41,243 nucleotides of DNA from positions 1 through 41,243 of the forward strand of contig JBNPEG010000082.1 in assembly GCA_051117555.1 (NCBI GenBank), read 5' to 3'. The notes beneath the pieces were generated by a model. It had not been told where the DNA came from and made no database searches. It saw nothing but the letters and a program-made list of their open reading frames with translations. Shown here one piece after another: positions 9,182 through 25,594 of this stretch. Each line of letters starts with the position of its first letter. Positions within the stretch are counted from its first letter, which is position 1. Made by a program: the position numbers and the translations under genes. This DNA comes from Elainellaceae cyanobacterium. Its GTDB lineage: Bacteria; Cyanobacteriota; Cyanobacteriia; CAZCXK01.

Positions 9182-10177
9182 ATGAGCCAGATTTCTCCGC
9201 CCAAACCGCCAAATTCGCCCCAAGATGCCTCAAAACAGAATATTGTGCAGCGCTATGCTCCATGGCTCTACGCCTTCTGGAAATTTTCCCGTCCGCATAC
9301 CATTATTGGTACGAGCCTCAGCGTTTTGGGCATATGGGCGATCGCCCTCGCTACATCCCCGGGTTCAATCGTCGAGGGAGTTAATGCCGGTGCACCTCAA
9401 CCTATATATTCTTTATTGTTCGCCTGGTTTACCTGCCTCTGCGGCAATATCTATATCGTCGGCTTAAACCAGATGCAAGATGTTGCCATTGATCGGGTCA
9501 ATAAGCCCCACTTGCCGATTGCGTCTGGCGAATTCTCTCGCAAGACGGGATGGGGAATTGTTATCACTACCGGGCTAATTGCCCTGCTGTTGTCACCGCT
9601 GCAAGGGTTATTTTTAACGATCACCGTCTGGTCGAGCGTGTTGATTGGGACGGCCTATTCATTGCCTCCAATTCGGCTGAAGCGGTTTCCTTTTTGGGCC
9701 TCTGTTTGCATCTTTACGGTGCGTGGCGTGATTGTAAACCTGGGGCTATTTCTTCACTTCAGTCAACAATTTGGATCGCGCACCACGATTCCAGCACCCG
9801 TTTGGGGGTTGACGCTGTTTATCCTAGGGTTTACGTTTGCGATCGCCATTTTCAAAGATATCCCTGATCTGGAGGGCGATCGCCGCTATAACATCACCAC
9901 ATTTACGATTCGCCTTGGGCAAACAGCCGTGTTTAACCTAGCGCGATGGGTGATTACGGCTTGCTATGTGGGAATGCTCATTGCTGGATTGATGCTTCCC
10001 TCCATTCATGCTCTTTTTCTAGTGCTGAGTCACGGATTAGCTCTTGCCGCATTTTGGTTTTACAGCACTCAAGTTGATCTACGGCAAAAGCAGGAAATTA
10101 CTGACTTCTATCAACTGATTTGGAAGCTATTTTTCCTGGAGTATCTGATCTTTCCGATCGCCTGCCTGCTTGCTTAA
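9182..10177 (+). CDS. hpt: Homogentisate phytyltransferase (tocopherol synthesis, UbiA family)
   Basis: FSRPHTIIGT, GLNQMQDVAIDRVNKPHLPIASG, KDIPDLEGD and WKLFFLEY motifs. Confidence 0.93.
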   Translation: MSQISPPKPPNSPQDASKQNIVQRYAPWLYAFWKFSRPHTIIGTSLSVLGIWAIALATSPGSIVEGVNAGAPQPIYSLLFAWFTCLCGNIYIVGLNQMQDVAIDRVNKPHLPIASGEFSRKTGWGIVITTGLIALLLSPLQGLFLTITVWSSVLIGTAYSLPPIRLKRFPFWASVCIFTVRGVIVNLGLFLHFSQQFGSRTTIPAPVWGLTLFILGFTFAIAIFKDIPDLEGDRRYNITTFTIRLGQTAVFNLARWVITACYVGMLIAGLMLPSIHALFLVLSHGLALAAFWFYSTQVDLRQKQEITDFYQLIWKLFFLEYLIFPIACLLA

Positions 10178-10227
10178 TTCGTCGTTGGGTCGATTCTATC
10201 CCCAGCATCGCCGGGCATTAGAATCGT

Positions 10228-11130
10228 CTATCGTGCCCGGTAATGCCAGAAAAAATCGCCTGCTGCTAATAGTGCCCCACCTACAATTAACAGACAGGCG
10301 ATCGCAATGCTCCAACTTGGTTCAGCTAAGCCACACACTACAAGCAGAAGGGTTGATAACAACGGAGCGGCATAGGATAATGCTCCGAGTACTTTGATGT
10401 TTCCTTGCTTGACGCCATAATCCCACGTAAAAAAGGCAAGACCCACCGGGCCTAATCCTAGACACACCACTGCGATCCACTGCCATCCAGACGGGATGAC
10501 GGTGGATTCAAATAGGGCATGACAGAGCCACGCGAGCAGGGCGGTGACTCCGCAAAATCCGCCGACCGCGTTAGTGGGAATAGCGCCCAATCGCCTCGAT
10601 AATACTGAATAACTCGACCACGTTAACGCACATACCAATGCAGCGAGATAGCCTGTCAAATGGCGCGTATCAAACGCGAACGATTGCCCGTTGGTGAGGA
10701 GTAGTGCAGCTCCTCCAAAACCGGCGATCGCCCCCACGATGTGAAACCATTTCAACTGTTCGCCCGGAAGTAGCGCAGAAAACACCACAATCAGCAGAGG
10801 CCACAAGTAAGCAATCAGACTAGCTTCGACTGCGGGCGCATGTCTTAAGGCGATGAAGTAGAAAAAATGATATCCGAATAACCCGAGAACACCGATCGCC
10901 CATACCCTACGAGGTAGCCTGAGGTGATGAAGAATGCCGCCACCCTGCTTCAGCCACACGACGACTCCAATTAAAAAGGCGATCGTAAATGACATTGCTG
11001 TAAGCTGAAATGGAGGCACAGAGCCACTCAGCTCAGTCAAGAGAGCGAGGGTTGCCCACATTAAGACGGCAGTAAAGCCAATCAATGTGGGCGCAATGGT
11101 GGATGAAACCTGAATAGATGTTTGTTTCAC
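10228..11130 (-). CDS. DMT/EamA transporter, YddG-like
   Basis: About ten TM helices in two EamA halves; LIAYLWPLLIV and WDYGVKQG motifs; 4-bp overlap with the upstream gene. Confidence 0.88.
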   Translation of the reverse strand: MKQTSIQVSSTIAPTLIGFTAVLMWATLALLTELSGSVPPFQLTAMSFTIAFLIGVVVWLKQGGGILHHLRLPRRVWAIGVLGLFGYHFFYFIALRHAPAVEASLIAYLWPLLIVVFSALLPGEQLKWFHIVGAIAGFGGAALLLTNGQSFAFDTRHLTGYLAALVCALTWSSYSVLSRRLGAIPTNAVGGFCGVTALLAWLCHALFESTVIPSGWQWIAVVCLGLGPVGLAFFTWDYGVKQGNIKVLGALSYAAPLLSTLLLVVCGLAEPSWSIAIACLLIVGGALLAAGDFFWHYRAR

Positions 11131-12260
11131 AGCTGATAGTTTGCAACTCCCTCATCAGAATTAAATCCATGAAATGGACTGTATTTCTTCATAACATGGT
11201 TGAGCGTATCAATGGGAAGGGCATAGGCTATGTGACCTTGAAAGCCGGTCATGGTTTTAGCCGCAACCAGTGCATTGAGAATGGCTTCTTCAACGGCTTC
11301 TGAGAGGGCTTCGAAGAGGGCATCCATCTGCTCATGAGGCAGCATTTTGATGGGCGTTAGCTGAGATGGATGTGCAAGCACGTCGTTTCCGGTGGAAAAT
11401 GCAAGAAAAACGTCTCCACTGCTATTTTGTCCGATTCCGCCTGTTCGCGCTAAGCCAACGGTCGCACGCCGAGCCAGCCGTTTACACTGGACTGGAATCA
11501 GCGGAGCATCGGTGGCAATGATGACAATAATGGAACCACCTGAGGGAGGCGTTTCCCAAGGGAGGGGAATGTGGGTTGCGTTTAGTTCATAGCCAACGGG
11601 AACCCCTGCAATGCGGAGTGAATGCCGTCGACCATAGTTGGTTTGCACTAAAACTCCTAACACATATTGCCCTATCGAGGTTGGCACGAGGCGAGAGGCT
11701 GTCCCGATTCCACCCTTGAATTCGTGACAAATCATACCCGTGCCTCCCCCCACATTGCCTTCATCACACGGCCCGCTTTGGGCGATCGCCAATGCGGCTT
11801 TGACGTGATCTGGAGTCACATGAAAGGCATTGATATCATTGAGCCATCCGTCATAGGTTTCGGCGGCTACCGGCAAAAAACTGCCGCGCGGATTGCCTTG
11901 TTCTAGACAATAGGCATTGAGAGCATCTCGTACGACTCCCACAGAGTGCGTGTTGGTGAGGGCGATCGCCGAGGTCAGCAACCCAGATTCCTCTAGCCAG
12001 AGAAGTCCCGTCATTTCGCCATTACCATTGAAGCAATAACTTCCGGCAAAGGCATAATTAGTCCATATGTCTCCGTGGCGCGGAACGATTGCTGTGACCC
12101 CTGTTCTGGCAATACGAGGTTCATCTTTGATGATCGTGCTATGCCCGACTAAAACACCTGCCACGTCAGTAATAGCATTGTGCGGTCCCGGTGCAAAGTG
12201 ACCAATAGTGATTCCTACATCCCTGAGGCGAGTTCGGCCCATCTTTGTGTTCCTGTGCAT
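11127..12260 (-). CDS. P1-family (S58) DmpA/BapA-like self-processing aminopeptidase/amidase
   Basis: NAITDVAGVLVGH, NGNGEMTG, EGNVGGGTGM and FKGGIGTASR motifs; G-S cleavage motif GSIIVIIATDAP; SGDVFLAFST. Confidence 0.9.
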   Translation of the reverse strand: MHRNTKMGRTRLRDVGITIGHFAPGPHNAITDVAGVLVGHSTIIKDEPRIARTGVTAIVPRHGDIWTNYAFAGSYCFNGNGEMTGLLWLEESGLLTSAIALTNTHSVGVVRDALNAYCLEQGNPRGSFLPVAAETYDGWLNDINAFHVTPDHVKAALAIAQSGPCDEGNVGGGTGMICHEFKGGIGTASRLVPTSIGQYVLGVLVQTNYGRRHSLRIAGVPVGYELNATHIPLPWETPPSGGSIIVIIATDAPLIPVQCKRLARRATVGLARTGGIGQNSSGDVFLAFSTGNDVLAHPSQLTPIKMLPHEQMDALFEALSEAVEEAILNALVAAKTMTGFQGHIAYALPIDTLNHVMKKYSPFHGFNSDEGVANYQL

Positions 12261-12273
12261 GTTCGTTGACAGA

Positions 12274-13329
12274 CTACGTTACTCTGACAGCGAGCTCTTG
12301 ACAAAAGATATCCACAATCATTTGAGTGGATACCGAGCGATCGCGCCACTGGGACTTTTCAGAGCACAGGTCAGCCGTGCGATATCCCTTGACCAACACT
12401 CGCTCTTGTGTCTCCATGATAGTGTGTGCCGCCTTTAGTTCGCCCCACTGTTCGAGCATTAACACAATGCCTGCGAGTGTACCAAACGGATTGGCAATAC
12501 CTTTCTGGGCAATATCGGGGGCAGTACCATGAATGGCCTCATACATGCCAAAGCCTTGGGCATTGAGGCTGGCAGATCCTAACATCCCAATTGAACCGAC
12601 CAGGGCTCCGCCGATATCGCTCAAAATGTCGCCAAACAGGTTTCCTGCCAACACCACATCAAACCGCTGAGGATGGCGCACCATCTGCATCGCGAGGTTG
12701 TCTACTAACATCGGTTCAATCTGCACACCTGGAAAGGCTCGCGCTTCATCACAGACGAGTTGAACCCAGGATAGGCAGGGCAATGCATTCTCTTTGTGAG
12801 CAACAGTCAGCACCTGTTTGCGAGCCGATGCTTTTTCTAATGCGACCTTAGCAATGCGGCGGATTTCGTGATCATAGTAGCGCATGGTGTGATAGCCATA
12901 GTTGCCCTGCTGATCGCGCGATCGCCCTGAGGGGCCAAAATAGATGCCGCTCACGAGTTCTCGCACAAACAAAATATCAACTTCCTGAAGTAGTTCGGGT
13001 TTTAGAGGAGATGCGCTAAACAGGCTAGGAGACGGGCGCACCGGACGCAGGTTTGCGAAGAAATCAAAGTGTTTGCGGAGTTCAAGCAATCCCCCTTTAG
13101 AAACCGCTCCAAAGACGATCCCATCTGTGCCGTCGCAAAGCCGCGCTGTGGCATCTGGGAAATAGCTCCCAAAGGTTTGCATCGCAGGTTCACCGATTAA
13201 CCCATGGGCGATCGCCACTGAGAACCCGTGTAATTTGGCAACCTCTTGCAGGATAGTGAGTGCAGCATCTACTACTTCAGGACCAATTCCTTCACCGGGG
13301 AGGGCAGCAATGCGATAGGAGCGAGACAT
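12274..13329 (-). CDS. Beta-decarboxylating dehydrogenase, isopropylmalate/isocitrate family (atypical LeuB paralogue)
   Basis: GEGIGPEV, ANLRPV, VRELVSGIYFG, NLFGDILSD and EAIHGTAPDIA motifs; lacks the GGPKWD..RPE loop. Confidence 0.85.
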   Translation of the reverse strand: MSRSYRIAALPGEGIGPEVVDAALTILQEVAKLHGFSVAIAHGLIGEPAMQTFGSYFPDATARLCDGTDGIVFGAVSKGGLLELRKHFDFFANLRPVRPSPSLFSASPLKPELLQEVDILFVRELVSGIYFGPSGRSRDQQGNYGYHTMRYYDHEIRRIAKVALEKASARKQVLTVAHKENALPCLSWVQLVCDEARAFPGVQIEPMLVDNLAMQMVRHPQRFDVVLAGNLFGDILSDIGGALVGSIGMLGSASLNAQGFGMYEAIHGTAPDIAQKGIANPFGTLAGIVLMLEQWGELKAAHTIMETQERVLVKGYRTADLCSEKSQWRDRSVSTQMIVDIFCQELAVRVT

Positions 13330-13361
13330 AGGGAGACGCAGTAGATTAGAGTGTAATTTAA

Positions 13362-13540
13362 GAGGATGTTTTAAAAGTCCTGTTTTTTGTTGCCTTAGCG
13401 ACTAAAGTTCTCTTGACAGAGACGCTTCGCGAACGCAGGCTACACGGACAAAAAAACCGTTGGTTTTGCTGGAGTCCGCCGCGGCGGACTTTGTTTGTAT
13501 AGGCGCGGTTTTAACCGCCGGCCCCTTTTAAAGCATCCTC
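13362..13540. mobile_element. MITE with 16-bp TIRs and a TAA target duplication (IS5-like ends)
   Basis: GAGGATGTTTTAAAAG / CTTTTAAAGCATCCTC (1 mismatch); TAA at 13359-61 and 13541-43; palindromic REP-like cargo. Confidence 0.75.
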
Positions 13541-16500
13541 TAAGGGCGATCGCCTTCGAAGGGATTGGGCATATGCTTGATGTTGGCAATCTCCTGGGCG
13601 AGTGTATCTACGGTAAACTGAATCTGGTCTTTTGAATGCAGTGAGGTAATAAAAAACCTCAGCCGTGCAGCGTTATAGGGCACAGACGGATAGACCATCG
13701 GCTGCACGTTAATGCCGTGTTCAAATAGCACTTGAGAAAGCCGGACGGCCTTATAGGGTTCACCCACGATAATTGGAATGACAGGGGAATGGTTGCTATT
13801 GCCGGTATCTAAGCCGCTAACACGGGCAAGCGTTAAGAAAAACTGTGCCCGCTGATGAAGCTGCGCGACTCGATCCGGTTCAGCACGTAGAATGCGTAGT
13901 GCCTCCAGCGCTGCTCCTGCATTTGCTGGGGACATCCCGACGCTGAATACAAACCCCGGTGCCGTATATTTCAAATATTCGACAAGCTCTCGACAGCCCG
14001 CAACATAGCCGCCACAGCTTGCAAATGACTTGCTCAACGTCCCCATCCACAAATCAACATCGCTGGATGAAATACTGAAGTATTCTCCAATGCCTCGTCC
14101 CCGCTGCCCTAATACGCCGATGGAATGCGCTTCGTCGACCAACAGAAATGCCTTGTGTTGCCTCTTAACTTCAACGATTTCAGGGAGAGGAGCCAGGTCG
14201 CCATCAGTACTGTAGATCCCTTCGATGGCAATCAGTACTTTCTGATAGTCATGCCGGTGCTGCCGCAAAAGCCGATCAAGCTCACGCCAATCATTATGGG
14301 GAAACTCTATTGCAGTGGCACCCGACAAATTACACCCTTCACGAATGCTGTTGTGGCTCAGGGCATCATAGAGAATCAGATCTTTCTTGCCGAAGAGATG
14401 CCCGATTGTTGTGACATTGGTAGCGTGCCCGCCAATATAAGCGATGCAGTCCTCCGTGCCTAGCAGTGCAGCAATTTCTTGTTCTAATGCCCGATGAATT
14501 GGACGTTCGCCGGACACAACACGACTTGCAGAGACTGAGGTTCCATAGCGGGCGATCGCCTCTTGAGCTGCCCTGGACACTCTCGGATCACCGGATAATC
14601 CCAAGTAGTTATAGGTGGAGTAGTTGATTACCTCACGTCCACCTATGTAAGAAATATCCCGAGCGATGCCGTCATGAACGTCAAAGAAGGGATTGCCCAA
14701 TGTTTCAACCCGATTCAAATCTCCTCGGAGAGCTAGATATTCTGGTGTTTTGGTGAATTGGTAGTATTCGGGAGGGATGGGGGGATGAGTGGATGGGGGG
14801 AAGAGTGGATGGGTGAAATTGGAATCAGGATTAGCGGGGATGCTTGGGGTGCTGGCTGGGAGTTTGTCTGACCCGTTGATTGACGTATGCTCTAACGTGC
14901 TGGCTGATGATTTAGAACTGTTGATTGATAGATGACCTGACGGTGCTGAAAGATTAGCTGACGAACCGGCTGATGGATCGGCTGAAGTAATCGTTGAGAT
15001 GCTTGCTGAATCATTAATCGAAACCGCATTAGTGAGATGGGCCGCAAGGGCGTTGGTAGTTGGATGGTCGAACAATAGGGTTTGGGGAATCGGATAGTTC
15101 AAACTGGTTTGTAGCCGATTGGTGAGTTCTACTGCCATGAGTGAATCCATGCCGAGGTCGCTGAAGCGTTCATAGGGATCAATCAAGTCAGGGGAACTAA
15201 AGCCTAAAACGTTTGCAAGGTGTTGACAAATGTGGTGTTCTAGTAACGACAGGCGATCGCCAGGGGTAGCAGTTTCAATCTGCTGACGTAGATCTGATCG
15301 AGTCTGACGAGGCGTCGTCTGAACAGTAGGCTTGAGGGCGTTCAACATTGGAGATAAGGAAGCGTGGCGGAAAAAAGCATCCCACTCTACTAGGAAAATG
15401 CCGACTTGGGAGAATCCTTGGGTGAGGGCAGCATCGAGAGCTTGGATTCCTAAATCCGGGGCGATCGCCCGTAACCCCTGAGCTGCAAGTCGGTTTGAAT
15501 CTCGTTCATCTAGATTCGCCGCCATACCCACCGCCCACGGTCCCCAGTTGATTGTGGTTGCAGGCAATCCTAGGCTGCGCCGATGATGGGTCAGCGCATC
15601 CATATAGGCATTGGCGGCTGCATAGTTGCCCTGCCCTGGAGAGCCGAGTAATGCCGCGATCGATGAGAAGCACACAAAGAAATCGAGCGAATCATCCTGG
15701 GTAAGAGTATGCAGATTCCAAGCCCCTGCAATTTTGGGTGCTAATACTGTTCTGAATGCCTCCCAGGATTGGTTTTGCAACACGCCATCCTCCAAGACTC
15801 CGGCGGCGTGAATGATGCCACGGAGTGGATGGGTCGGGAGGGGCGAGTCAGACGTAGAGATGAACGATGAAATCAGGGCAGCAGCATCGGCTGACTTTGA
15901 AATATCTGCCTGAGCGGTGCGAATGTGGGCTCCCTGCTGCTCAAGCTGGCGAATTGCGGCAACGGCATCGGGGGAAGGGGGGCGGCGTCCGGCAAGTACA
16001 ACCTGAGTTGCGCCACGTTCGACCAACCATCGGGCGATATGGAGTCCGATTGCTCCCAGTCCACCCGTGATTAGGTAGCTGGCATCCTTGCGAATCGGCT
16101 GAGCAGGGGCGATCGCCGGCAATGAAATCACGACTTTGCCCACGTGTTTCGCCTGTGCCATATATCGAAATGCTGCGGGCACATCTTCAACTGGGAAGAC
16201 GGTGTGAGTCAGAGGTTTCAACGTACCCTGCTGAAACTGCTGTATCAGGTCTGTCAGCATAGCTGCCACAAGATGCGGAGCTTTCTGTGACACCGCCAGG
16301 AGATCAAACGGACAGTACAACACATCCGGTCTCGCTTGGTGAATTTTGCATGCGTCCCAGATGCCAATTTTGCCAATTTCAACAAAGCGACCCTGGGATG
16401 CCAATACGCTCAATGACTTGGGAATGAAATCTCCGTTAAGGCTATTCAGCACCACATCGACGCCTGCTCCTGCCGTGATGTCTAATACCTCATGGGCAAA

Positions 16501-19500
16501 ATCAAGGGTGCGAGAATTCATGACGTGAGTGACGCCCATTGAGCGCAGAACCTCCCACTTGCCGGGGCTGGCAGTAGCAAACACCTCTGCTCCGATGGAC
16601 TGAGCTAACAGCACTGCCGCTTGCCCCACTCCCCCAGCAGCGGCATGAATAAGGACGCGATCGCCCGGTTTGAGATTTGCCAAGTGACAGAGCCCATAGT
16701 AAGCCGTTAAGAAAGTCGTCGGAATGGTGGCGGCTTCGGAAAAACTGAGTCCGTTAGGCTTGGGCACCACAAATCGTGCATCGACAGTGACGTGCTGTCC
16801 TAAGCTACCCACCGCTTGAGCAGCAATGACGGTATCTCCTACTTGCAAGCCATCGACCCCGTCGCCCACCGCCGTCACGACGCCCGCACAGTCTCCACCA
16901 AACGGAACCTCGCTCGCCTTGGCAATGCCCATGTCTTCTAACACATCCTTCAGCATGCCCAAAGCGTTTAGCACGTCACGAAAGTTGATGCCTGCTGCCC
17001 GTACCTGAATTTCCACCTCGCCCGGTTGAGGTGAGCGGCGAGTAGTAGGTATCCACGTTAAATTGTCTAACACCCCATAGTCGGACAGACTCAACCGGAA
17101 TGACTCTGCCTTGGGAATCGACACCCGCTGGGTCAGGTATTGGTGATGGGGTAAAAGCCGCGCAACGTAGCGATCGCCCTGACGATAGGCAATCTGGTCT
17201 TCATCGTCTGATCTGCACAGTTCGTTCACTAAATCGGCTGTGGAGACAGCCCGATCCACATCGATGCAGGTGCAGTAGAGCTTGGGATATTCGAGCCGAA
17301 TGACTCGCGCCAGCCCCCATAGAGAAGCGTGGTCAATCTGTAACGGCATAGGAACGCCAACTGCCTGTGAATTCTGGGTGATCAGCCACAGCCGAATTGA
17401 GATCAAGGACTGCATAGAAGACTGTGCGATCGCCTGAATCAGGTATAAAACACTCCCACATCCGCGCTGCTGCACCTGTTCCCAGGTTGTTGAAACAGAC
17501 GAGTTTTCAATATGACTATCAATTCCCCAGAGATGAACGATATTCAAGTTCAGAGATAAATTCAGATTTGAAGTCTCTACTGCTAACTGCTCTAGTACCT
17601 GATAGAACTGATCAGGACATGACGGATTAATCGCGTAGACATCCTGTTTCAACGCGGTGAAGTCATCGCCGGGAACTACCATCACACAGCGATCGCCCCG
17701 GTGTCGTAGTGCTGTGGAAAGGTCTGCTCCAATGCTCTGAGCGTCGGCAAATAGCAGCCACATCGTTTGGGTCTGGCAATTCGCAGACGCGATATCGAGC
17801 GGCTTTGACTGCCAAGTCAGGTGATAAAACCACTGAATCTCGCTCTTGACTCCTAAAAGTTGCTGTAAGGACGGTTCGCTGATAGAGCGGAGCGTCAATC
17901 CTTGAAGATGAGCCGCGATCGCCCCGGACTCGTTCCACACGGACACATCAGCTTTGAGGATGGAAGAGGGAGTTGTGGATATCTCATCTCGAATATGAAT
18001 ATGGCACCACAGGGATTGCCCCAGCGGTGCAACCTGTCGCAGTGTTTCAATGCCCACAGGCAAATATGTTCCAGAGGTGCTGTCAGTGGCGATCGCCGCT
18101 CCCAGGGTTTGAAAGCAAGCATCAAGTACTACCGGATGGAGGTGATAGAAATTACTAATATACCTAACACTATCAACGAGCGCATCCGGTAGTTGAATCT
18201 GACTCAATGCCTCCTGATCGCCGCACCAAAGCTGACGAATGCCTTGAAACAGGGTGCCATACTCTAAGCCTTGCGATCGCAGCGTTTGATAGTAGTGGCT
18301 GACATCAATTGGGGTTGCAATCAAAGCAGTCTGGAGCTGAACGAGGTCTGGAGTGTGAGGCGGATTGGAATGGCTAGGGGCAATCGTTCCGCGGGCATGG
18401 CGAATTACTGTTTCATTACCATCTTTCTCAACGAGGATGCTGAAAATCTGTGCAGCATACCCCCCATTCTCATCAGGCATGAGAACAATCTGCACCGTCG
18501 TCGGAGCCGTGAACACGAGTGGCTGCTCGATGGATACATCCAAGATATCTACGTCAGCCCCGATTACGTCACCTCCAGCCGCCATCATCATTTCAACGTA
18601 GGCGGCTCCCGGCATGACCGGCTGACCCAGGATGCGGTGATCGGTCAAATAAGCAGGAGAGGTCGCCTCAAGCGTTACTTGAAAACGAATCTCGGAGGTT
18701 CCGGCTAGACGCAGGCGATCGCCCAATAATGGATGTCGGCACTGGGTAGAAGTATTAGACACTGGCGAAACGAAATTGCTGGCGATCGCCCCGTCCCACC
18801 AGTAGCGCTGCCGCTGGAAGGGATAGGTCGGCAGGTGAACATACTGCCGGGGTGAGTCGCCCAATGCATCTACGCCTTGCCAGTCAATAGGTACACCGCG
18901 AACGTAGAGGTCTCCTAAACTCTGAAGTAGGGTCTGCCAGTCAGATGCCCCCGGACGCAAACTCGGCAACCATATTGCTGATGGAGACGTCGCTAGTTGA
19001 GAAATCGCTGATGCAGCTCTATTCGTCCGTGTATTAGCAGCGAATTGCTGATCCCAACACTGTCGTCCCAGACCGAGCAGAATCGGCTTGGCTCCAATTT
19101 CTAAGAAGACTCGATAGCCTGCCTGCTTTAACGTCTCCATGCCCGCTGCAAAGCGCACAGGCTGACAGATATGCTGGCACCAGTAGTCGGGAGTGGCGAT
19201 CGCATCGGTTGCCCTGCCCGTCACGGTGGACACAAACGGAATGCGCGGAGCGGAGTAGGTCACCTGCTGAGCGGCCTTGGCAAAGTCGTGGAGCATAGGA
19301 GTCATCAACGACGAATGAAAGGCGTGGGACACATTGAGCCGCGTCGCTTTGATGCCCGTTGTTTCAAACGTAGACATGATATGGGCGATCGCCTCATCCG
19401 TGCCCGAAATCACAATATTCTGTGGGCTGTTAACCGCTGCGATCGCCACCTCATCCCCATAGGGTGCGATCGCCTCTCCAACCTGTTCGACAGATGCCAT

Positions 19501-21600
19501 CACCGCTACCATGCCCCCACCCGACGGCAGCGCTTGCATAAGTCGTCCCCGTTCTGCAATCAGCGTCAGCCCATCCTCTAGGCTAAAGACTCCCGCCAAG
19601 CACGCCGCCACATATTCGCCAATGCTATGCCCCATGACTACCGAAGGCTGAACGCCCCACGATTGCCAGAGTTGCGCCAGGGCATACTCGATGGCGAAGA
19701 GAGCGGGTTGGGTGTAAGCGGTTTGATCAAGGGAGTGGGGGGTGATTGAGTGAGATGACGAGAAGAGAATATCCAGGAGAGGCCGTCCCAAGAGAGGGCG
19801 CAGAATCTGATTGCAGCGATCGAGGGTTTGCCGAACGACTGGCTGAGTCGCATACAGGTCGCGCCCCATATCGACGTACTGAGACCCTTGCCCGGTGAAC
19901 AGAAAAGCGAGAGACGGCGGAGTTTCAGTCACAATTCCGTGAGATACGCCGACGAGGGTCTGCCCCGATATGTCTCGCCCGGATATTTCTGGCCCAGATA
20001 TTTCTTGCCCAGAGGCGACCTGCCCAGATGCGATCGCCCGTAATTGCGCACCCATCTGCTCAACCGACGATGCCACACATGCCAGCCGATGATGAAAGCG
20101 CGATCGCCCCGTATTGGCCGTAAAACACACATCCGCTAAACGACCCTCCCATCCGGCCAAAAACGCCTCATACCGTCCCGCCAGCTCTCGCAACGCCGTT
20201 TCATTCTTTGCCGACAGCGTCAGCACCTCGTGCGATCGCCCGACTTTCTCTCCATCTTGCATCGGCAGGTCGTCAAAGGTTGATGGCTGATCGCCCGCCA
20301 CTGACTGCTGACTCATTCCCTCCAACACCACATGGGCATTCGTTCCCCCAAACCCAAACGAGTTCACTCCTGCCAATGCCGGAGCACCATTGGTAATCCA
20401 CGGCTCCAGCGTGGTCTGCACCCGCAAGCCCAGCGATGCGAAATCAATGTGAGGATTGGGCGTCTGAAAATGCAGGCTCGGCGGAATTTGCCGATGCTTC
20501 AATGCCAACGCAGCTTTAATGAGTCCCGCAACTCCAGCAGCCGTTTCAGAATGACCGATATTGGTTTTCACCGAACCAATTGCACAGTCGTCACCCGGTT
20601 GGCGATCGCCTGACAACACCGCTCCTAGCGCCTGTGCCTCAACCGGGTCGCCAATTTTCGTGCCGGTGCCGTGTGCTTCGACATACTGTACCTGTCCGGG
20701 CGAGATGCCTGCCCGCTGATATGCCTCGCGCAGCACCGCCGCTTGCGCATCGGGATTGGGAGCCGCCATGCCGTTGCTAAAGCCATCTTGATTTACGGCA
20801 GTGCCTCGAATCACGGCATAAATCGGATCACCCCCCTCAAGCGCATGGGATAACGGCTTCAGCACGACGATGCCTGCGCCCTCGCTGCGTACGTAGCCGT
20901 TTGCACTCGCATCGAAGCTCTTGCAGCGACCCTGGGCTGACATAAACCCGCCTTTTGAAAACCCAGTCGTGATCGTGGGCAGCAGCAGAATATTCACACC
21001 GCCCGCTAACGCCATGCTCGATTCGCCAGTCCACAAGCTTTGACATGCCAGGTGAACCGCAACCAGCGACGACGAACAGGCAGTATCAACCGCAAGACTC
21101 GGCCCCTTAAAGTCAAACAAGTACGACAGGCGATTGGCGGCAATGCAGTTGCCCGTTCCGGTCGTCGCGTAGGGATCATTGACGGGCTGCTGCCACAGCA
21201 TGATGGAATAGTCGTGGGTGCCAATTCCGATAAACACTCCGGTCTTGGAGCCTTTGAGTGTTTCAGGAATATGTCCGGCATCTTCTAGCGCCTCCCACGC
21301 CACTTCTAGCAAGAGCCGCTGTTGGGGGTCCATTGTGCTGACCTCTCGCGGCGCGATACCAAAAAATTGGGGATCAAACTGGTCAATCTGGTCAAGAAAG
21401 CCTCCCCAGCGGGTATTCGCTTTATCGGGAGTTGTCGGGTCAGGGTCGTAAACCGCATCGACATCCCATCGAGACGGAGGGACTTCGGTAATGGCATCAA
21501 CGCCGGTTTGAATCAACTGCCAAAAGGCATCTGGATTGTCTGCACCAGGATATCGACATCCAATTCCAACGATCGCAATGGGCTCTTGCGTATGCAACAT
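13540..21600 (-). CDS. Type I PKS, KS-AT-DH-ER-KR-ACP, fused to a C-terminal PLP-dependent alpha-oxoamine synthase (AONS/SPT-like) domain
   Basis: KS: DTACSSS, EAHGTGT, KTNIGH. AT: GHSIG, HAFHS. DH: HRILGQPVMP, LDACFQ. ER: LIHAAAGGVG. KR: GGLGAIG, HAAGVLED, YAAAN. ACP: GMDSL. Oxoamine synthase: NYLGL, SHNS, DEAHS, GTLSKS. Confidence 0.95.
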   Translation of the reverse strand: MLHTQEPIAIVGIGCRYPGADNPDAFWQLIQTGVDAITEVPPSRWDVDAVYDPDPTTPDKANTRWGGFLDQIDQFDPQFFGIAPREVSTMDPQQRLLLEVAWEALEDAGHIPETLKGSKTGVFIGIGTHDYSIMLWQQPVNDPYATTGTGNCIAANRLSYLFDFKGPSLAVDTACSSSLVAVHLACQSLWTGESSMALAGGVNILLLPTITTGFSKGGFMSAQGRCKSFDASANGYVRSEGAGIVVLKPLSHALEGGDPIYAVIRGTAVNQDGFSNGMAAPNPDAQAAVLREAYQRAGISPGQVQYVEAHGTGTKIGDPVEAQALGAVLSGDRQPGDDCAIGSVKTNIGHSETAAGVAGLIKAALALKHRQIPPSLHFQTPNPHIDFASLGLRVQTTLEPWITNGAPALAGVNSFGFGGTNAHVVLEGMSQQSVAGDQPSTFDDLPMQDGEKVGRSHEVLTLSAKNETALRELAGRYEAFLAGWEGRLADVCFTANTGRSRFHHRLACVASSVEQMGAQLRAIASGQVASGQEISGPEISGRDISGQTLVGVSHGIVTETPPSLAFLFTGQGSQYVDMGRDLYATQPVVRQTLDRCNQILRPLLGRPLLDILFSSSHSITPHSLDQTAYTQPALFAIEYALAQLWQSWGVQPSVVMGHSIGEYVAACLAGVFSLEDGLTLIAERGRLMQALPSGGGMVAVMASVEQVGEAIAPYGDEVAIAAVNSPQNIVISGTDEAIAHIMSTFETTGIKATRLNVSHAFHSSLMTPMLHDFAKAAQQVTYSAPRIPFVSTVTGRATDAIATPDYWCQHICQPVRFAAGMETLKQAGYRVFLEIGAKPILLGLGRQCWDQQFAANTRTNRAASAISQLATSPSAIWLPSLRPGASDWQTLLQSLGDLYVRGVPIDWQGVDALGDSPRQYVHLPTYPFQRQRYWWDGAIASNFVSPVSNTSTQCRHPLLGDRLRLAGTSEIRFQVTLEATSPAYLTDHRILGQPVMPGAAYVEMMMAAGGDVIGADVDILDVSIEQPLVFTAPTTVQIVLMPDENGGYAAQIFSILVEKDGNETVIRHARGTIAPSHSNPPHTPDLVQLQTALIATPIDVSHYYQTLRSQGLEYGTLFQGIRQLWCGDQEALSQIQLPDALVDSVRYISNFYHLHPVVLDACFQTLGAAIATDSTSGTYLPVGIETLRQVAPLGQSLWCHIHIRDEISTTPSSILKADVSVWNESGAIAAHLQGLTLRSISEPSLQQLLGVKSEIQWFYHLTWQSKPLDIASANCQTQTMWLLFADAQSIGADLSTALRHRGDRCVMVVPGDDFTALKQDVYAINPSCPDQFYQVLEQLAVETSNLNLSLNLNIVHLWGIDSHIENSSVSTTWEQVQQRGCGSVLYLIQAIAQSSMQSLISIRLWLITQNSQAVGVPMPLQIDHASLWGLARVIRLEYPKLYCTCIDVDRAVSTADLVNELCRSDDEDQIAYRQGDRYVARLLPHHQYLTQRVSIPKAESFRLSLSDYGVLDNLTWIPTTRRSPQPGEVEIQVRAAGINFRDVLNALGMLKDVLEDMGIAKASEVPFGGDCAGVVTAVGDGVDGLQVGDTVIAAQAVGSLGQHVTVDARFVVPKPNGLSFSEAATIPTTFLTAYYGLCHLANLKPGDRVLIHAAAGGVGQAAVLLAQSIGAEVFATASPGKWEVLRSMGVTHVMNSRTLDFAHEVLDITAGAGVDVVLNSLNGDFIPKSLSVLASQGRFVEIGKIGIWDACKIHQARPDVLYCPFDLLAVSQKAPHLVAAMLTDLIQQFQQGTLKPLTHTVFPVEDVPAAFRYMAQAKHVGKVVISLPAIAPAQPIRKDASYLITGGLGAIGLHIARWLVERGATQVVLAGRRPPSPDAVAAIRQLEQQGAHIRTAQADISKSADAAALISSFISTSDSPLPTHPLRGIIHAAGVLEDGVLQNQSWEAFRTVLAPKIAGAWNLHTLTQDDSLDFFVCFSSIAALLGSPGQGNYAAANAYMDALTHHRRSLGLPATTINWGPWAVGMAANLDERDSNRLAAQGLRAIAPDLGIQALDAALTQGFSQVGIFLVEWDAFFRHASLSPMLNALKPTVQTTPRQTRSDLRQQIETATPGDRLSLLEHHICQHLANVLGFSSPDLIDPYERFSDLGMDSLMAVELTNRLQTSLNYPIPQTLLFDHPTTNALAAHLTNAVSINDSASISTITSADPSAGSSANLSAPSGHLSINSSKSSASTLEHTSINGSDKLPASTPSIPANPDSNFTHPLFPPSTHPPIPPEYYQFTKTPEYLALRGDLNRVETLGNPFFDVHDGIARDISYIGGREVINYSTYNYLGLSGDPRVSRAAQEAIARYGTSVSASRVVSGERPIHRALEQEIAALLGTEDCIAYIGGHATNVTTIGHLFGKKDLILYDALSHNSIREGCNLSGATAIEFPHNDWRELDRLLRQHRHDYQKVLIAIEGIYSTDGDLAPLPEIVEVKRQHKAFLLVDEAHSIGVLGQRGRGIGEYFSISSSDVDLWMGTLSKSFASCGGYVAGCRELVEYLKYTAPGFVFSVGMSPANAGAALEALRILRAEPDRVAQLHQRAQFFLTLARVSGLDTGNSNHSPVIPIIVGEPYKAVRLSQVLFEHGINVQPMVYPSVPYNAARLRFFITSLHSKDQIQFTVDTLAQEIANIKHMPNPFEGDRP
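19960..20034. repeat. Five degenerate 15-bp tandem units inside the PKS KS-AT linker
   Basis: Encodes SGQVA-SGQEI-SGPEI-SGRDI-SGQTL. Confidence 0.8.
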
Positions 21601-21781
21601 TCTGACTTTGTGATGGTTAAACGAACAAAATTAAGGATGCGGTGTTAAACCAGGTTCAACGCGACATTTAGAGCATTTCTTACAAACGCACCTGTTTTGG
21701 ACGTAGACCTGGTTTAATGGGCTTCTACTACGTAAACCAGGAAATTTGGCGCTGTCAAGATATCTGGCAAAAATACTTTAC

Positions 21782-23029
21782 TCATTTCAACGGGGTTGAA
21801 ATTGCTACGATCTGCGATTGCCAAACTGCGAGCAGCCTATCAACGGCTCGCGTCCAACTCATTGAATCCACCCATTCTCGTCCTCGATGCCCCATCGTGC
21901 GGCGCAGATCCGGCTCATGAATGAGTCGGTGTAGCGTTTGAATAAAATCGTCAACATCCTTTGGCGTAAAGAGAAATCCGTTCCATCCCTCTTGCACCGT
22001 CTCCACCACACCCCCCGCCCGCGGGGCAATGACGGGAATTCCGGCAGCAAATGCTTCTAATAGAGTTAATCCGCGAGTTTCTTTTTCAGAGGCAGTGATA
22101 TGAATGTCGCTATTGATTAGCAGATCAGGCACTGCATCTGGAGGGACGCGTCCCAAACAGCGGGCGTGAATTCCTAACTGCCGGAAACGGGTTTCAATTT
22201 CGCTGCGGCGATCGCCCTCTCCAGCCACGATGATCGCCACCCGATCGAGATCAAATTCAGACCGAGTTGCCAGCGTTGACCAGGCGTCTAGGGTAAATGC
22301 CCAGCCTTTATCGGCGGTTAATCGTCCCAGAAAAATCAGCTTGACGCGCCGATCGACATCGGGGATGCCGTAGGTTTTCTCAAAAAATCGATCATCCCGC
22401 TTCTCGACATTGAACCGAGTTAGATCAACCCCCAAGAAGTCGTCACAAATCGCGTTGCGAATTCCCATATGGGTCACATTCTCAGAGGTCACTCGGCTTG
22501 AGACGAGCGTTGCATCATAGGCATTAAACACGCGGCTGATGATGCGTTTTGAACCCCACTGGGCAAGGGCGATCGCCACAGGAGGCAAATTAAAATAGTC
22601 CTCGATGTAGTCCACAAAATTGGTATGAAAGAACGCGACGCAGGGAATCTGATGCTGCTTTGCAAAATCGACTCCCGGTGCGTTAAACAGGCTCAGAGAG
22701 AGGCGATCGGGTTCATCCACATGAATGATATCGGGCTGAAATGCGTCTAGTTCTTGTAACACCAGCCGATACGACGCGCGAGTCGGGTTTCGCTCAAACT
22801 CCAGCCCCATAAACGGTTCGCTGGCGAGGCTCACCACACGCACTCCCGGCAAAATGGCGCCCACGTATTCATGCCAGTCGGGATAGATCGAGGCAATGGG
22901 GCGATAGTCTGGGCACAGCAGAAGCACCTGATGACCCTGTTGACTCAATACCTTCAGCCGATTTGACAGGGTCACGGTGACTCCATCGACGACGGGTAAA
23001 AAGCCAGACGAAATGATAGCAATTTTCAT
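21782..23029 (-). CDS. GT4 glycosyltransferase (SqdX/PimA-like GT-B fold)
   Basis: MKIAIISSGFLPVVDGV, FLGRLTADKG and ETRGLTLLEAFAAGIPV motifs. Confidence 0.9.
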   Translation of the reverse strand: MKIAIISSGFLPVVDGVTVTLSNRLKVLSQQGHQVLLLCPDYRPIASIYPDWHEYVGAILPGVRVVSLASEPFMGLEFERNPTRASYRLVLQELDAFQPDIIHVDEPDRLSLSLFNAPGVDFAKQHQIPCVAFFHTNFVDYIEDYFNLPPVAIALAQWGSKRIISRVFNAYDATLVSSRVTSENVTHMGIRNAICDDFLGVDLTRFNVEKRDDRFFEKTYGIPDVDRRVKLIFLGRLTADKGWAFTLDAWSTLATRSEFDLDRVAIIVAGEGDRRSEIETRFRQLGIHARCLGRVPPDAVPDLLINSDIHITASEKETRGLTLLEAFAAGIPVIAPRAGGVVETVQEGWNGFLFTPKDVDDFIQTLHRLIHEPDLRRTMGHRGREWVDSMSWTRAVDRLLAVWQSQIVAISTPLK

Positions 23030-23045
23030 TGAATACCGTGAGTCG

Positions 23046-24680
23046 TTATAAACAATTCTCCGCTACAGGCGTCACCGTCCACAGAGAGAGCGATCGCTCG
23101 GCGGCAATGAGTCGTTTTGGCTGGTAGATTTCATCTAAATCAAGCTGGTGGTTTGCACGAATAGTCTGAATCGCAGACGATGATGGATTAAACACAAATG
23201 TCGAGTCACACGCCCTAGGCAAGAGAGAACTGATTTCGGATGATAGCGCGATGCGCACCGAGGAATTGAACATATAGCTGAGAGAAATCAGATCCAGAGT
23301 TTGGTCTGCCTCAGCGATCACGAGCGGCGACTCCGCCCGATTCACGATCGCCGCGATCGCCCCATTGCTGAGATTTCGGCTCTTTTGATATTTTGGCGGC
23401 ATGGACCAGTGGGTCAAGCACGACCCGATGCTAAGCGAAACTAGGGCGATCGCCACGCACCTCCATGTCAGGGCTTGAGCGTTGCTGAGGCTAAAACGCA
23501 TTGAATGAGTTAATAGGTGGGAGATCGCCAGCAATATCCCCAATTGGAGGGGCATCAGATATCGCGCCGCAGTCGAGGTTTGCCCATTTGAAACCAGATC
23601 CAGCAAAAGTAAGGAGATGGGCAGCGTTCCGGCAAACGTCACCACAAATAGCCAGACTGACGTTGGCGACTTTAGCCGCAAGACGTAGACGGCGTATCCC
23701 ATCAGTGCCAGCAGCACTAGAGAAACCGTCACCTTCGCAAACGTCGCCAGGGATAGATCCAACGACACAGGCACATCAAAAAACAGCACCGCAAGGTTGT
23801 AAATCAAAATTCCGGCGATCGCCCCGAAATTCATCGGTTCTCGCATCCAGGTCGTGTTGGTTTGCAGTGTCATCCATTGCTGGGCAATGATCAGCAGCCA
23901 GGGCGAGACGGCAAGCAAAGCCAATCCGGTTGCCATCCAATAGTGACGCACTCGACTTGTGCGTTTAAGAGGTGAGGATTTGGAGCGTGTCATGACTACG
24001 ACATAGATTCCTTGCCCAAGAGCAACAAACACTGACAGCAGCGAAGTATAAAGGGTGAGAGCTAACGTTAGCGCATAGACTCCCCAACTCAATCTCATAT
24101 CCAGCCGCATGGCTCGCAGCAAGGCAACTCCAGAAAGCAGCAGCGTCACCGACCAGAGGCTATACGGTCGGGCTTCCTGAGCATACGCCACAAAGAAGGG
24201 CGACACTGACAGCAAGCCCACTGCCATCCAACCCACGACTGGCGCTTTGAATAGTTCAACCGTCAGCCAGTAGAAACAGGGCAGTGCCACCACGCTACAG
24301 ACGACCGACAGCGAGCGAATCGCCACGACCGAACTGCCAAACATCTGCACCCAGAGTCGAGCCAGGATGAAGTAGAGCGGCGCATGTTCAGGACTTTGCC
24401 TGAGAGCGTCAAACGTGTCTGCCCAATCTCGATCAGCATTCAACTGCTGATAGTGCTGCACGTCTTCTATGGAGAGCACGTCGCCCGTTGCAATCTGCTG
24501 AACGACCTGCTCCTGGGTGTACCCCGATATTCGAATCGACGTAGCGACTTCATCCACCCAGTAAAACGGGTTATCCAGATTGATGAGTCGAAACGCAAGT
24601 CCAAGGCTCAACAACACCAGGCTTAAAACCAACCCTGGATGTGTCCAGTAGGGCGATCGCCTAATATCGCTTTTCTCCAT
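23046..24680 (-). CDS. GT39/PMT_2-like membrane (GT-C) glycosyltransferase
   Basis: YWVDE, PEHAPLYF and YAQEARPYSLW motifs, many TM helices. Start moved to ATG 24680 because the longer ORF extension translates repeat DNA. Confidence 0.85.
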   Translation of the reverse strand: MEKSDIRRSPYWTHPGLVLSLVLLSLGLAFRLINLDNPFYWVDEVATSIRISGYTQEQVVQQIATGDVLSIEDVQHYQQLNADRDWADTFDALRQSPEHAPLYFILARLWVQMFGSSVVAIRSLSVVCSVVALPCFYWLTVELFKAPVVGWMAVGLLSVSPFFVAYAQEARPYSLWSVTLLLSGVALLRAMRLDMRLSWGVYALTLALTLYTSLLSVFVALGQGIYVVVMTRSKSSPLKRTSRVRHYWMATGLALLAVSPWLLIIAQQWMTLQTNTTWMREPMNFGAIAGILIYNLAVLFFDVPVSLDLSLATFAKVTVSLVLLALMGYAVYVLRLKSPTSVWLFVVTFAGTLPISLLLLDLVSNGQTSTAARYLMPLQLGILLAISHLLTHSMRFSLSNAQALTWRCVAIALVSLSIGSCLTHWSMPPKYQKSRNLSNGAIAAIVNRAESPLVIAEADQTLDLISLSYMFNSSVRIALSSEISSLLPRACDSTFVFNPSSSAIQTIRANHQLDLDEIYQPKRLIAAERSLSLWTVTPVAENCL

Positions 24681-24737
24681 TAATGTTTGAGAGTCTATTC
24701 CAAGCAGTTCGTCACTACTATGCCTTAAAACTGGATA

Positions 24738-24943
24738 ATACCGATTCTCGATTTTGGATTTGCGATTTTGGATTGACAGTGCTGTAGATACTGGCGTGGC
24801 ACAGCTAAAATTGCGCATTAGGTAGGGTGTCGTTAGCGCAGCGGACGCTGTTGGCGAAATATCGCATCGACTATCAGCGGATGCTATCTCAATTAGGCAT
24901 GTCAGACCAGTAGGGTGCGTTGCTGTCAAGCGACGCACCCTAC
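24738..24943. repeat. Heptamer-repeat element plus GTAG-type REP palindromes
   Basis: ATACCGATTCTC end with (GATTTTG)-like heptamers at 24738-24787; hairpin GTAGGGTGCGTTGC..GCGACGCACCCTAC at 24910-24943. Related copies at about 30893-30975 and 32281-32350. Confidence 0.7.
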
Positions 24944-24982
24944 GAGGACTTTTACGAAAACCTAAACGCTCTCGTGTCGAGT

Positions 24983-25273
24983 CTATTCCACTAATCGATC
25001 GCGCTGGAGATATCGCAAGATGTCTCCTTGGTCGCGCTGAATCGTGATGCCGCCGTCAGGAATGGCGATCGCCCGACTCCATTCAAACCGTTCCGCGTAG
25101 CCTAATACGTGTAAGGTATCGACTGCGTTTTGAGTATCCGCCTGAGAGCCCACGATGTAAAGCCGCAACCGCCTCCGCCTCGGCTGGGGATGACGATACG
25201 GAGGGCGATCGCCCAGCAACGGCAGGGTCGTCCCCTCAATCGAGGACGAGCAAACATATTGAATTTTCAACAT
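24983..25273 (-). CDS. Small hypothetical protein, cyanobacterial-type
   Basis: Clean ORF with a GAGGA RBS. LYIVGS....V..LHVLGYAE..EWS resembles a recurrent cyanobacterial small-protein family. Confidence 0.7.
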   Translation of the reverse strand: MLKIQYVCSSSIEGTTLPLLGDRPPYRHPQPRRRRLRLYIVGSQADTQNAVDTLHVLGYAERFEWSRAIAIPDGGITIQRDQGDILRYLQRDRLVE

Positions 25274-25492: not shown

Positions 25493-25594
25493 GTGCATTT
25501 GATCCCAGGTTTCAAGGGATACACGTCATAAGTTCGAGAAAAGAAGAAAAGCAAGTAGATTAAGAACAGGAAGATTTCATAGTCAAGGAGGAGA

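Follow-up and report, generated by a model that had tools for sequence, protein, structure and literature searches.

A fully reducing polyketide synthase fused to an alpha-oxoamine synthase, part of a dispersed cyanobacterial gene set with a probable role in glycosylated sphingoid-type lipid synthesis

The 41,243-base stretch of DNA analyzed here (the window) is an entire contig (C132) from the genome of an Elainellaceae cyanobacterium, which is rated 100% complete and comprises 256 contigs. On its reverse strand it encodes a 2686-residue protein, PKS-AOS, in which a fully reducing type I polyketide synthase (PKS) module is fused to a C-terminal alpha-oxoamine synthase (AOS) domain. We find that this protein does not work alone but is part of a larger gene set scattered over the genome, and that it represents a new form, fused and linked to glycosyltransferases, of the PKS-plus-AOS route already known to lead to sphingoid-type lipids. 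On balance we favor the view that it serves as the terminal module in an orphan pathway, widespread and uncharacterized in cyanobacteria, that leads to a glycosylated sphingoid- or ceramide-like amino-lipid; the case is built from domain anatomy, phylogenetic placement and gene linkages, from which we infer each of the chemical steps.

The domains of the protein, as delineated with Pfam, by the positions of their motifs and from the translation, are as follows:

13540..21600, reverse strand: whole open reading frame (ORF), 2686 residues, ketosynthase (KS)-acyltransferase (AT)-dehydratase (DH)-enoylreductase (ER)-ketoreductase (KR)-acyl carrier protein (ACP)-AOS (translation and Pfam)
20467..21585, reverse strand: KS, residues 6-378, E = 7e-100 (Pfam and motif positions)
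18910..19905, reverse strand: AT, residues 566-897 (Pfam and motif positions)
17863..18735, reverse strand: DH, residues 956-1246 (Pfam and motif positions)
Residues 1289-1458, between DH and ER: structural pseudo-KR (Pfam)
16126..17028, reverse strand: ER, residues 1525-1825 (Pfam and translation)
15532..16083, reverse strand: KR, residues 1840-2023 (Pfam and motif positions)
15034..15231, reverse strand: ACP, residues 2124-2189 (Pfam and motif positions)
14731..15033, reverse strand: Ser/Pro-rich low-complexity linker from ACP to AOS, residues 2190-2290, ~100 residues (translation)
13543..14730, reverse strand: AOS, residues 2291-2686 (Pfam Aminotran_1_2 at 2323-2661, E = 1.6e-46)

Pfam also places a KS-AT linker between the first two domains. 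Every catalytic motif that we sought is present, and the module qualifies as a type I fully reducing one: the KS has DTACSS at 172, HGTGT at 310 and NIGH at 347, with Cys172, His310 and His347 in place; the AT has GHSIG at 657 and HAFH at 759, the latter of which we take to mark a malonyl-type rather than a methylmalonyl-type domain; the DH has HRILGQPVMP (HxxxGxxxxP) at 988, the ER the nucleotide motif LIHAAAGGVGQAA, the KR GGLGAIG at 1846 and YAAAN at 1993, and the ACP GMDSL at 2150. The AOS has a YNYLGL loop, SHNS at 2415, DEAHS at 2489 and, at 2521, TLSKS with the lysine that binds pyridoxal phosphate (PLP). Chance cannot account for an 8-kb open frame that holds 21 Pfam families, and PKS-AOS is real and intact, as a first-pass annotation made from the sequence alone had already read from the motifs of the KS, AT, DH, ER, KR and ACP and from the PLP lysine. 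The KS is preceded by only 5 residues, and an N-terminal docking helix is absent. That annotation had further noted that the window has no thioesterase (TE), fatty acyl-AMP ligase (FAAL), loading ACP, phosphopantetheinyl transferase (PPTase) or short-chain dehydrogenase/reductase (SDR), and Pfam agrees, with no TE, FAAL, ACP, PPTase or SDR among the 26 other ORFs of at least 100 residues in the window; the sole acyltransferase-type gene is a GNAT at 37311-37886, 16 kb from PKS-AOS. Its reading of an intact malonyl-type fully reducing module with decarboxylative release onto an amino acid is supported, such a condensation being the most likely means of chain release. The best full-length NCBIfam match is to the mycobacterial phthioceranic acid synthase Pks2 (1284.5 bits, residues 7-2190), short of the 2400-bit cut-off of the MAS/Pks2-like model NF041183. 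A scan for promoters and terminators across 9900-25900 returned 9 and 9 against shuffled means of 12.4 and 14.8, respectively, and did not inform the operon structure.

Among solved structures the best relatives of the AOS domain are serine palmitoyltransferases (SPTs; Sphingobacterium 3a2b and 8guh, E = 3.7e-72), followed by a Thermus BioF/KBL enzyme and plant and human SPT subunits, and then by KBL, BioF and ALAS. Its PLP lysine, PLP-stacking histidine, Asp-x-x-His motif and C-terminal arginine align with those of 3a2b, 8guh and 8s1y, and the residues of the alpha-oxoamine synthase family are likewise kept in an alignment with annotated SPT, KBL, BioF and ALAS proteins. The domain falls below the cut-off of each of the NCBIfam AOS models; it reaches 355.4-360.8 bits against 426.45 with bioF (TIGR00858), which is yet the top-scoring one, and 297 bits against 460 with KBL. 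The motifs YNY(L/M)G, DEAHS and T(L/F)SKS are common, in our alignment, to the clade of this AOS and to one Sphingomonas SPT, whereas E. coli BioF, Ralstonia KBL and S. meliloti ALAS instead have NDY/NNY, DDAHG/DECHA/DEVHA and GKG/GKA/AKA. A phylogenetic tree was built from 38 cyanobacterial AOS domains with one reference each for BioF (E. coli), KBL (Ralstonia), ALAS (S. meliloti) and SPT (Sphingomonas), the last adjoining its ACP (locus L165). The window AOS lies in an ACP-linked clade, of which AOS domains from Bacillus mycoides and from an SDR-AOS-GT1 cluster in Acidisoma are also members, and is split from the BioF, KBL, SPT and ALAS references with an SH-aLRT support of 99; with its long reference branches and one sequence per family, the tree supports 'not BioF, not KBL' and offers no positive sister. 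The grouping with BioF that the first-pass annotation had proposed to check by such a tree is thus not recovered. The PKS-fused domains form one clade (SH-aLRT 99), which is sister to FAAL-ACP-AOS proteins accompanied by an SDR (97) and is nested among the FAAL-type forms, so that a PKS module has taken the place of a fatty-acid loader ahead of a releasing enzyme that is conserved. Proteobacterial plasmid matches are 30-35% identical to the window AOS. By analogy with the chemistry of the family, L-serine would most likely be its amino-acid substrate.

Over 100 full-length proteins sharing this Pfam set are on record, mostly 53-64% identical over the ACP-AOS region, and those named by organism are cyanobacterial except for one labeled Candidatus Gracilibacteria and a Corallococcus protein that is shorter (KS-ACP-AOS). 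An even sample of the phylum (401 genomes) contains 24 with an AOS of at least 46% identity, BioF lying at ~38%, and in 5 of these 24 it is fused to a full PKS in an open frame of at least 2465 residues; a scan of genome contigs confirmed 590 AOS relatives. The acyl supply to these enzymes varies: a single FAAL-ACP-AOS protein followed by an SDR; a FAAL, an ACP, the AOS and a B12-radical-SAM protein together with a second FAAL, two LpxO-like hydroxylases, a Rieske oxygenase and a GT4 glycosyltransferase (in Lyngbya PCC 8106, Limnoraphis, Planktothrix and Moorena); FAAL-ACP-KS-AT-DH-KR-ACP followed by the AOS; FAAL-ACP-KS-AT followed by the AOS; and the fully reducing fused PKS-AOS, as in the window.

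Loci with 57-64% identity over ACP-AOS also occur in records labeled as metagenome-assembled genomes (MAGs) of Candidatus Gracilibacteria (L067, L121) and Pirellulales (L138, L142) and as Alphaproteobacteria (L071), and the two Pirellulales domains fall within the cyanobacterial clade of the trees, which suggests mis-binned contigs or horizontal transfer. The nearest non-cyanobacterial relatives, at 44-46% identity, are on plasmids of Acidisoma (L164) and Bacillus mycoides (p362; L163), in glycolipid-like clusters: the former codes for an SDR, the AOS, a sterol-desaturase-family protein, two GT1 enzymes, capsule proteins and a lipoteichoic acid (LTA)-synthase-family protein, and the latter for a glycosyltransferase, an ACP-AOS, a methyltransferase, an ABC exporter, a ketoacyl-ACP synthase (KAS) and a PPTase. 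The present genome has a second, very divergent AOS-like gene (462 residues, 27% identical, 235 bits with bioF) with orthologues in the genomes G158, G014 and G017; it belongs to a run of genes on contig C54 at ~54500-63600 (L159 6500-15581) whose other products are a Rieske oxygenase, an MFS transporter, a hydroxylase of the LpxO-like kind that is 57% identical to one in the G017 cluster, an adenylating enzyme of the GH3 family and an O-antigen-ligase-like protein.

Candidate partners of PKS-AOS are encoded on other contigs of the same genome. Contig C187 codes for a 3096-residue protein with the order adenylation (A) domain-ACP-KS-AT-DH-ER-KR-ACP, the A domain of which has its nearest solved relatives in the McyG A-PCP (4r0m, 4e-139) and in a keto-acid-selecting nonribosomal peptide synthetase (NRPS) module (6ulw), and the C-terminal docking motif of which is of the type found in systems with two PKS genes in tandem. 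Divergent from it is an isopropylmalate synthase (IPMS)-like gene (HMGL, HphA-like), and the same contig codes for a KS-only protein, which has an intact Cys-His-His set and an N-terminal docking helix matching the C-terminus of the PKS, an SRPBCC protein, an SDR and a 610-residue protein without a known family (unk610). This SDR is 61% identical to that encoded directly after the AOS in the loci L050, L054, L099, L127, L086, L089 and L078, to which the next-best SDRs of the genome are ~30% identical. Further candidates are a PPTase on C203, an ACP-less FAAL on C24, where it adjoins an unk610 paralogue, and genes of the LpxO-like and PagL-like kinds on C54 and C69, respectively. The stand-alone look of the window follows from this dispersal over contigs. 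The first-pass annotation had called the enzyme stand-alone, naming partner PKS modules elsewhere in the genome as evidence to the contrary, and the C187 A-ACP-PKS is just such a module; its description of an enzyme without loading module holds within the window but not genome-wide, given the same A-ACP-PKS, the C24 FAAL and the C203 PPTase, and its claim that no separate reductase exists fails at the genome level on account of the candidate SDR on C187.

These genes are found together elsewhere. A protein with an A-ACP-module architecture is encoded directly upstream of PKS-AOS, on the same strand and with gaps of 6-145 bases, in Chroococcus FPU101 (G403), G406 and G202, and these PKS-AOS orthologues likewise have no docking helix. 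A related A-ACP-PKS is adjacent to an orthologous PKS-AOS in G017, G014, L079, L106 and plasmid p3 of Planktothrix agardhii strain NIVA-CYA 126/8. One strand of the G017 cluster carries genes for HMGL, PKS-AOS and PagL, the divergent strand those for the A-ACP-PKS, KS-only, SRPBCC, SDR and unk610 proteins, and the whole is flanked by GT4, LpxO-like and two PMT_2 genes; L079 and L106 again have a divergent A-ACP-PKS, with an HMGL gene leading into PKS-AOS, and in G014, the one of the five sampled fused holders without a McyG-like A-ACP-PKS, a convergent neighboring PKS starts with a related A domain (35% identity). The p3 cluster spans ~29 kb with genes for a FAAL, a GT39, an alpha/beta hydrolase, PKS-AOS, a second GT39, unk610, a GT4, SRPBCC, KS-only and A-ACP-PKS proteins. 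Its KS-only gene (L162 26487-28333) appears as two overlapping pieces in different frames with no listed CDS, the PLSDB tables omitting pseudogenes, and may be a frameshifted pseudogene. McyG-like A domains (E <= 1e-90) occur in 4 of the 5 sampled genomes with the fused protein versus 17 of the 396 others, although the fused holders are related genomes, two of the five being congeners, and hence not independent; a McyG-like A-ACP-PKS was also recovered in 7 of 8 further PKS-AOS holders. The unk610 family (580-610 residues) is often present in several copies per genome, with three here (C187 24474-26303, C24 3731-5377 and C173 16389-18065), and occurs in 61 of the 401 genomes; being multicopy it is useless as a co-occurrence marker and was rejected as such. 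The C173 copy adjoins a PMT_2 paralogue, and the family may be a partner of GT39-like transferases.

Within the window, three neighbors of PKS-AOS recur at related loci:

21782..23029, reverse strand: GT4 glycosyltransferase, 181 bp upstream of the PKS
23046..24938, reverse strand: PMT_2/GT39-like polytopic membrane glycosyltransferase, 16 bp upstream of the GT4 gene
12274..13329, reverse strand: LeuB paralogue (HphB-like 3-substituted-malate dehydrogenase), 210 bp downstream of PKS-AOS

We counted neighbors at 36 loci with a fully reducing PKS-AOS, the window included, and at 66 other AOS loci, many of the flanks ending at contig ends. GT4 orthologues (45-90% identity) are present at 11 of the 36 and 8 of the 66, PMT_2/GT39-like genes at 9 and none, and a LeuB paralogue after the AOS at 8 (7 of the 29 with at least 1.5 kb downstream) and 2. 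PagL-like genes are found at 5 of the fully reducing loci and 1 of the others, LpxO-like genes at 3 and 13, and HMGL-like genes and McyG-like A domains at 4 of the 36 each. Clusters of the Pleurocapsales and Chroococcales type instead carry a GT2, a 745-767-residue protein without a Pfam match, predicted from its N-terminus to be a membrane protein, and a DAO-family oxidoreductase. A link between the last of these and the FAD oxidoreductase of C187 was rejected, the two not being homologous at E 1e-5. Glycosyltransferases are the shared theme. An S58 peptidase and a YddG-like exporter were rejected as pathway members, being found at 3 and 2 of the 36 loci, respectively, in close kin only, and at none of the 66. 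In the window they are packed with the LeuB paralogue on the reverse strand at 10228-13329, with a 13-bp gap and a 4-bp overlap; the peptidase is of the S58/DmpA type and the exporter matches NF050091 at 411 bits against a cut-off of 300. On the opposite strand, 9 kb from the PKS, 609-4428 encodes Wza-like polysaccharide export and Wzc-like chain-length/tyrosine-kinase proteins, homologues of which also occur close to an AOS in L108. A PIN-domain gene (25861-26259, forward strand) is divergent from a 156-residue ORF without a family match (25351-25821, reverse strand), both lying just upstream of the GT39-like gene.

The LeuB paralogue scores 307 bits, below the 353-bit leuB cut-off, and the true leuB lies on C248. 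NRPS clusters of G154 and G212 pair HMGL-like genes with LeuB paralogues that share 63-67% identity with it. Leptolyngbya JSC-1 (L114) and L072 have the gene order PKS-AOS, LeuB paralogue and a fused aconitase, L114 having an HMGL-like gene as well, and an orthologue of this aconitase (71%) is on C247 of the present genome. By comparison with hphA/B/CD of Nostoc punctiforme, as outlined in PMC12961565, we interpret the HMGL-like gene, the LeuB paralogue and the aconitase as a set for 2-oxo-acid homologation (HphA/HphB/HphCD-like), which is split three ways between C187, the window and C247. The presence of homologation genes beside both PKS-AOS and the A-ACP-PKS is hard to explain unless one pathway uses both PKSs. 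In other cyanobacterial clusters, 2-oxo-acid homologation sets feed McyG-type loading domains.

We accordingly envisage, by analogy with the chemistry of these families, that the malonyl-specific fully reducing module would lengthen an acyl chain to a saturated acyl-ACP, and that the fused AOS would condense this thioester with a small amino acid, with loss of CO2, to release a free 2-amino-3-keto lipid. The gene linkages suggest that the ketone would then be reduced by the C187 SDR, that sugars would be attached by the GT4 and the GT39-like membrane transferase and that the ACP-less C24 FAAL may supply a second acyl chain, the outcome being a cell-envelope glycolipid that is sphingoid- or ceramide-like. 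A second chain, and with it a ceramide-like product, is suggested by the ACP-less FAALs of C24, p3 and G202, which resemble the 'second' FAALs of FAAL-type clusters slightly more (49-54% identity) than the loader FAALs (45-49%). Within this scheme there is about an even chance that the acyl chain itself comes from the McyG-like A-ACP-PKS of C187, with a starter provided by the HphA-, HphB- and HphCD-like genes.

Several observations weigh against the pathway so conceived. No product is known for any member of the family, and a starter lengthened by two C2 units would remain short unless one of the modules iterates. The AOS scores 319.7, 294.5 and 208.6 bits with the SPT models NF047600, NF047599 and NF047603, against cut-offs of 640, 500 and 670. 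The solved SPT is described as recognizing serine mostly via waters and the PLP phosphate (PMC10196870), so that the amino-acid substrate is not readable from sequence. The linkages are incomplete too: a GT4 or PMT_2 gene is within the flanks at only 12 of the 36 fully reducing loci, an SDR adjoins the AOS at only 2 of them, and we identified no N-acyltransferase. The C187 PKS gene precedes that of the KS-only protein with the matching docking helix, and the window PKS has no helix, so the C187 chain may go elsewhere. No McyG-like A-ACP-PKS was found in G402 at E <= 1e-60, and the A domain is not a specific marker, 17 of its 21 holders being without this AOS. The HMGL-like gene was rejected as a marker for the same reason: 10 of the 14 holders among the 401 genomes are without this AOS, the gene lying mostly in NRPS clusters.

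An alternative that we consider rather improbable, the first of two options raised in the first-pass annotation, is that PKS-AOS is a self-contained iterative synthase, which primes itself and runs through many cycles in the manner of a fatty acid synthase (FAS) before the AOS yields a long-chain 3-keto-sphinganine, the C187 genes then serving another pathway that is often nearby. The window PKS has neither a docking helix nor a loader in cis, there is no loader within at least 13 kb on either side, the C187 PKS owns a docked KS partner, and among NCBIfam models Pks2 gives the best match over the full length (1284 bits, residues 7-2190). Mycobacterial Pks2, the phthioceranic acid synthase, is iterative. 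Furthermore, PfSgaA of Pseudomonas fluorescens, which is monomodular and is described as iterative, feeds a separate AOS (PMC12134224). On the other hand, orthologues with the same short N-terminus lie directly downstream of the A-ACP-module protein in G403, G406 and G202, a FAAL-ACP loader lies directly upstream of PKS-AOS in L097, and the homologation genes are common to both loci; the sequence tests applied do not separate an iterative from a single-pass KS.

It is also rather improbable that the enzyme is a one-step extender, the second option of the first-pass annotation, which would take a fatty acyl chain from the ACP of the FAS or from the C24 FAAL, add one C2 unit and release the product through its AOS, following the logic of mycobacterial FadD/Mas. 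The nesting of the fused AOS clade among FAAL-ACP-AOS enzymes, which use fatty acids directly, and the order FAAL-ACP then PKS-AOS in L097 fit such a scheme, as do the FAALs inside the clusters of P. agardhii p3 and G202 and the C24 FAAL of this genome beside an unk610 paralogue. These ACP-less FAALs are, however, the ones that are slightly nearer to the 'second' than to the loader type, and a FAAL is within reach at only 2 of the 36 fully reducing loci; one of the genomes with a FAAL, G202, also has the same-strand A-ACP-module gene directly upstream, so that the FAAL is not needed there as a loader. Finally, a role in biotin synthesis, with the PKS making pimeloyl-ACP and the AOS acting as a BioF with alanine to give 8-amino-7-oxononanoate, would agree with bioF being the highest-scoring AOS model (355-361 bits) and with the absence of a BioF above cut-off from this genome and its congener G158, but is close to refuted by the score short of 426.45, the lack of a detectable bioB in this complete-rated genome, the co-occurrence of true BioF (427-465 bits) with PKS-AOS in G017, G014 and G202, the split of the AOS clade from E. 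coli and cyanobacterial BioF (SH-aLRT 99), the YNY, DEAHS and SKS motifs in place of NDY, DDAHG and GKG, and linked genes that are glycosyltransferases and not bio genes. As to biotin itself, bioB was not found in this genome, neither it nor G158 has a BioF above cut-off, and the genus may be a biotin auxotroph or use another route.

Returning to the proposed amino-lipid pathway, the closest characterized system is PfSgaAB(C) of P. fluorescens MYb115, in which, according to a 2025 Nature Communications report (PMC12134224), an iterative monomodular PKS, a separate serine-specific AOS and a KDSR-like SDR give C24-C28 sphinganines and phosphoglycerol sphingolipids. There, as in our proposal for the window, a monomodular type I reducing PKS hands its chain to an AOS with an SPT-like structure, and the sphingoid base later gets a head group. 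The differences are that the PKS and AOS are separate proteins in Pseudomonas and fused here; that the short-chain reductase acting on the 3-keto product is encoded in the cluster there, whereas the candidate SDR is on another contig here; that the head group there is phosphoglycerol, as against the GT4 and GT39 glycosyltransferase genes linked to the window; and that a McyG-like A-ACP-PKS, a KS-only protein and homologation genes are additional here. Serine use and iteration were demonstrated in that system, and the likeness of the window to it is one of design, not of direct sequence comparison. PKS-AOS thus appears to resemble a fused PfSgaAB pair, and we do not claim membership, as it falls below the SPT and BioF cut-offs and its partners differ.

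Among cyanobacteria, FAAL-ACP-AOS clusters (with or without an SDR) and FAAL/ACP/AOS/B12-radical-SAM clusters, all uncharacterized, were observed in Lyngbya PCC 8106, Trichodesmium IMS101, Moorena, Planktothrix PCC 11201 and Nostoc C117; their AOS is of the same clade (60-65% identity) and always has an ACP-bound acyl donor, and they likewise hold GT4 (~50% identity), LpxO-like hydroxylase and SDR genes. They use a FAAL-activated fatty acid without PKS extension, whereas in the window a fully reducing PKS replaces the FAAL-ACP loader. A bacterial SPT with a dedicated ACP (PMC9386255), such as that of Sphingomonas (L165), would have in common with it the PLP-dependent decarboxylative condensation and the ACP-delivered chain, and shares the YNY, DEAHS and SKS motifs. 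It belongs to another clade of the tree, the window AOS is below cut-off with three SPT models, and the carrier in the window is the ACP of the PKS in cis. C-terminal AOS domains on assembly lines that release the chain by condensation with an amino acid are also found in RedL/PigH of prodiginine and SxtA of saxitoxin synthesis; their terminal modules are not known to have a full DH-ER-KR loop and they yield pyrroles and guanidine alkaloids, not glycosyltransferase-linked lipids. The rkp-1 and wcb capsule-lipid operons (RkpA/RkpG, WcbR/WcbT) combine a FAS-like PKS, an AOS and an SDR with polysaccharide genes, but are proteobacterial, encode separate proteins and are tied to capsule priming by KpsC/KpsS. 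We found no paper describing the present cyanobacterial PKS-AOS lipid cluster; two Planktothrix genome papers refer, in the parts at hand, only to 'unknown NRPS/PKS genes' or orphan PPL clusters, and their supplements might name the p3 cluster.

These results show how a 'stand-alone' enzyme in a single window can be an artefact of the dispersal of a cluster across a genome. To our knowledge, sphingolipid synthesis is not known from cyanobacteria as a phylum, sphingolipid-type lipids are regarded as confined to a small number of phyla among bacteria, and it was not until 2025 that a PKS route to them was shown, in Pseudomonas. Against this background we tentatively raise the possibility that about 6% of the sampled cyanobacteria (24 of 401) make unrecognized glycosylated sphingoid- or ceramide-like envelope lipids, the long-chain base of which would be assembled on an ACP, with suppliers that are interchangeable, namely a FAAL alone, a FAAL with a partial PKS or a McyG-like-primed fully reducing PKS pair with a fused AOS, and then tailored through reduction by an SDR, N-acylation through a second FAAL, LpxO-like hydroxylation, GT4/GT39 glycosylation and PagL-like outer-membrane remodeling. 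In the window version the HphA/B/CD-like genes might give an aryl- or branched-alkyl starter and hence an unusual omega-substituted base. P. agardhii NIVA-CYA 126/8 is in culture and has the complete cluster on a plasmid, which makes the function testable there. If the proposal is true, these clusters would be a natural case in which the unit for acyl supply is exchanged ahead of a single releasing enzyme, and the combination of a conserved, modular family of ACP-dependent AOS enzymes with glycosyltransferases and lipid-A-style modifiers (LpxO-, PagL- and ArnT-like) would point to a new class of envelope lipid in a major phylum of phototrophs.

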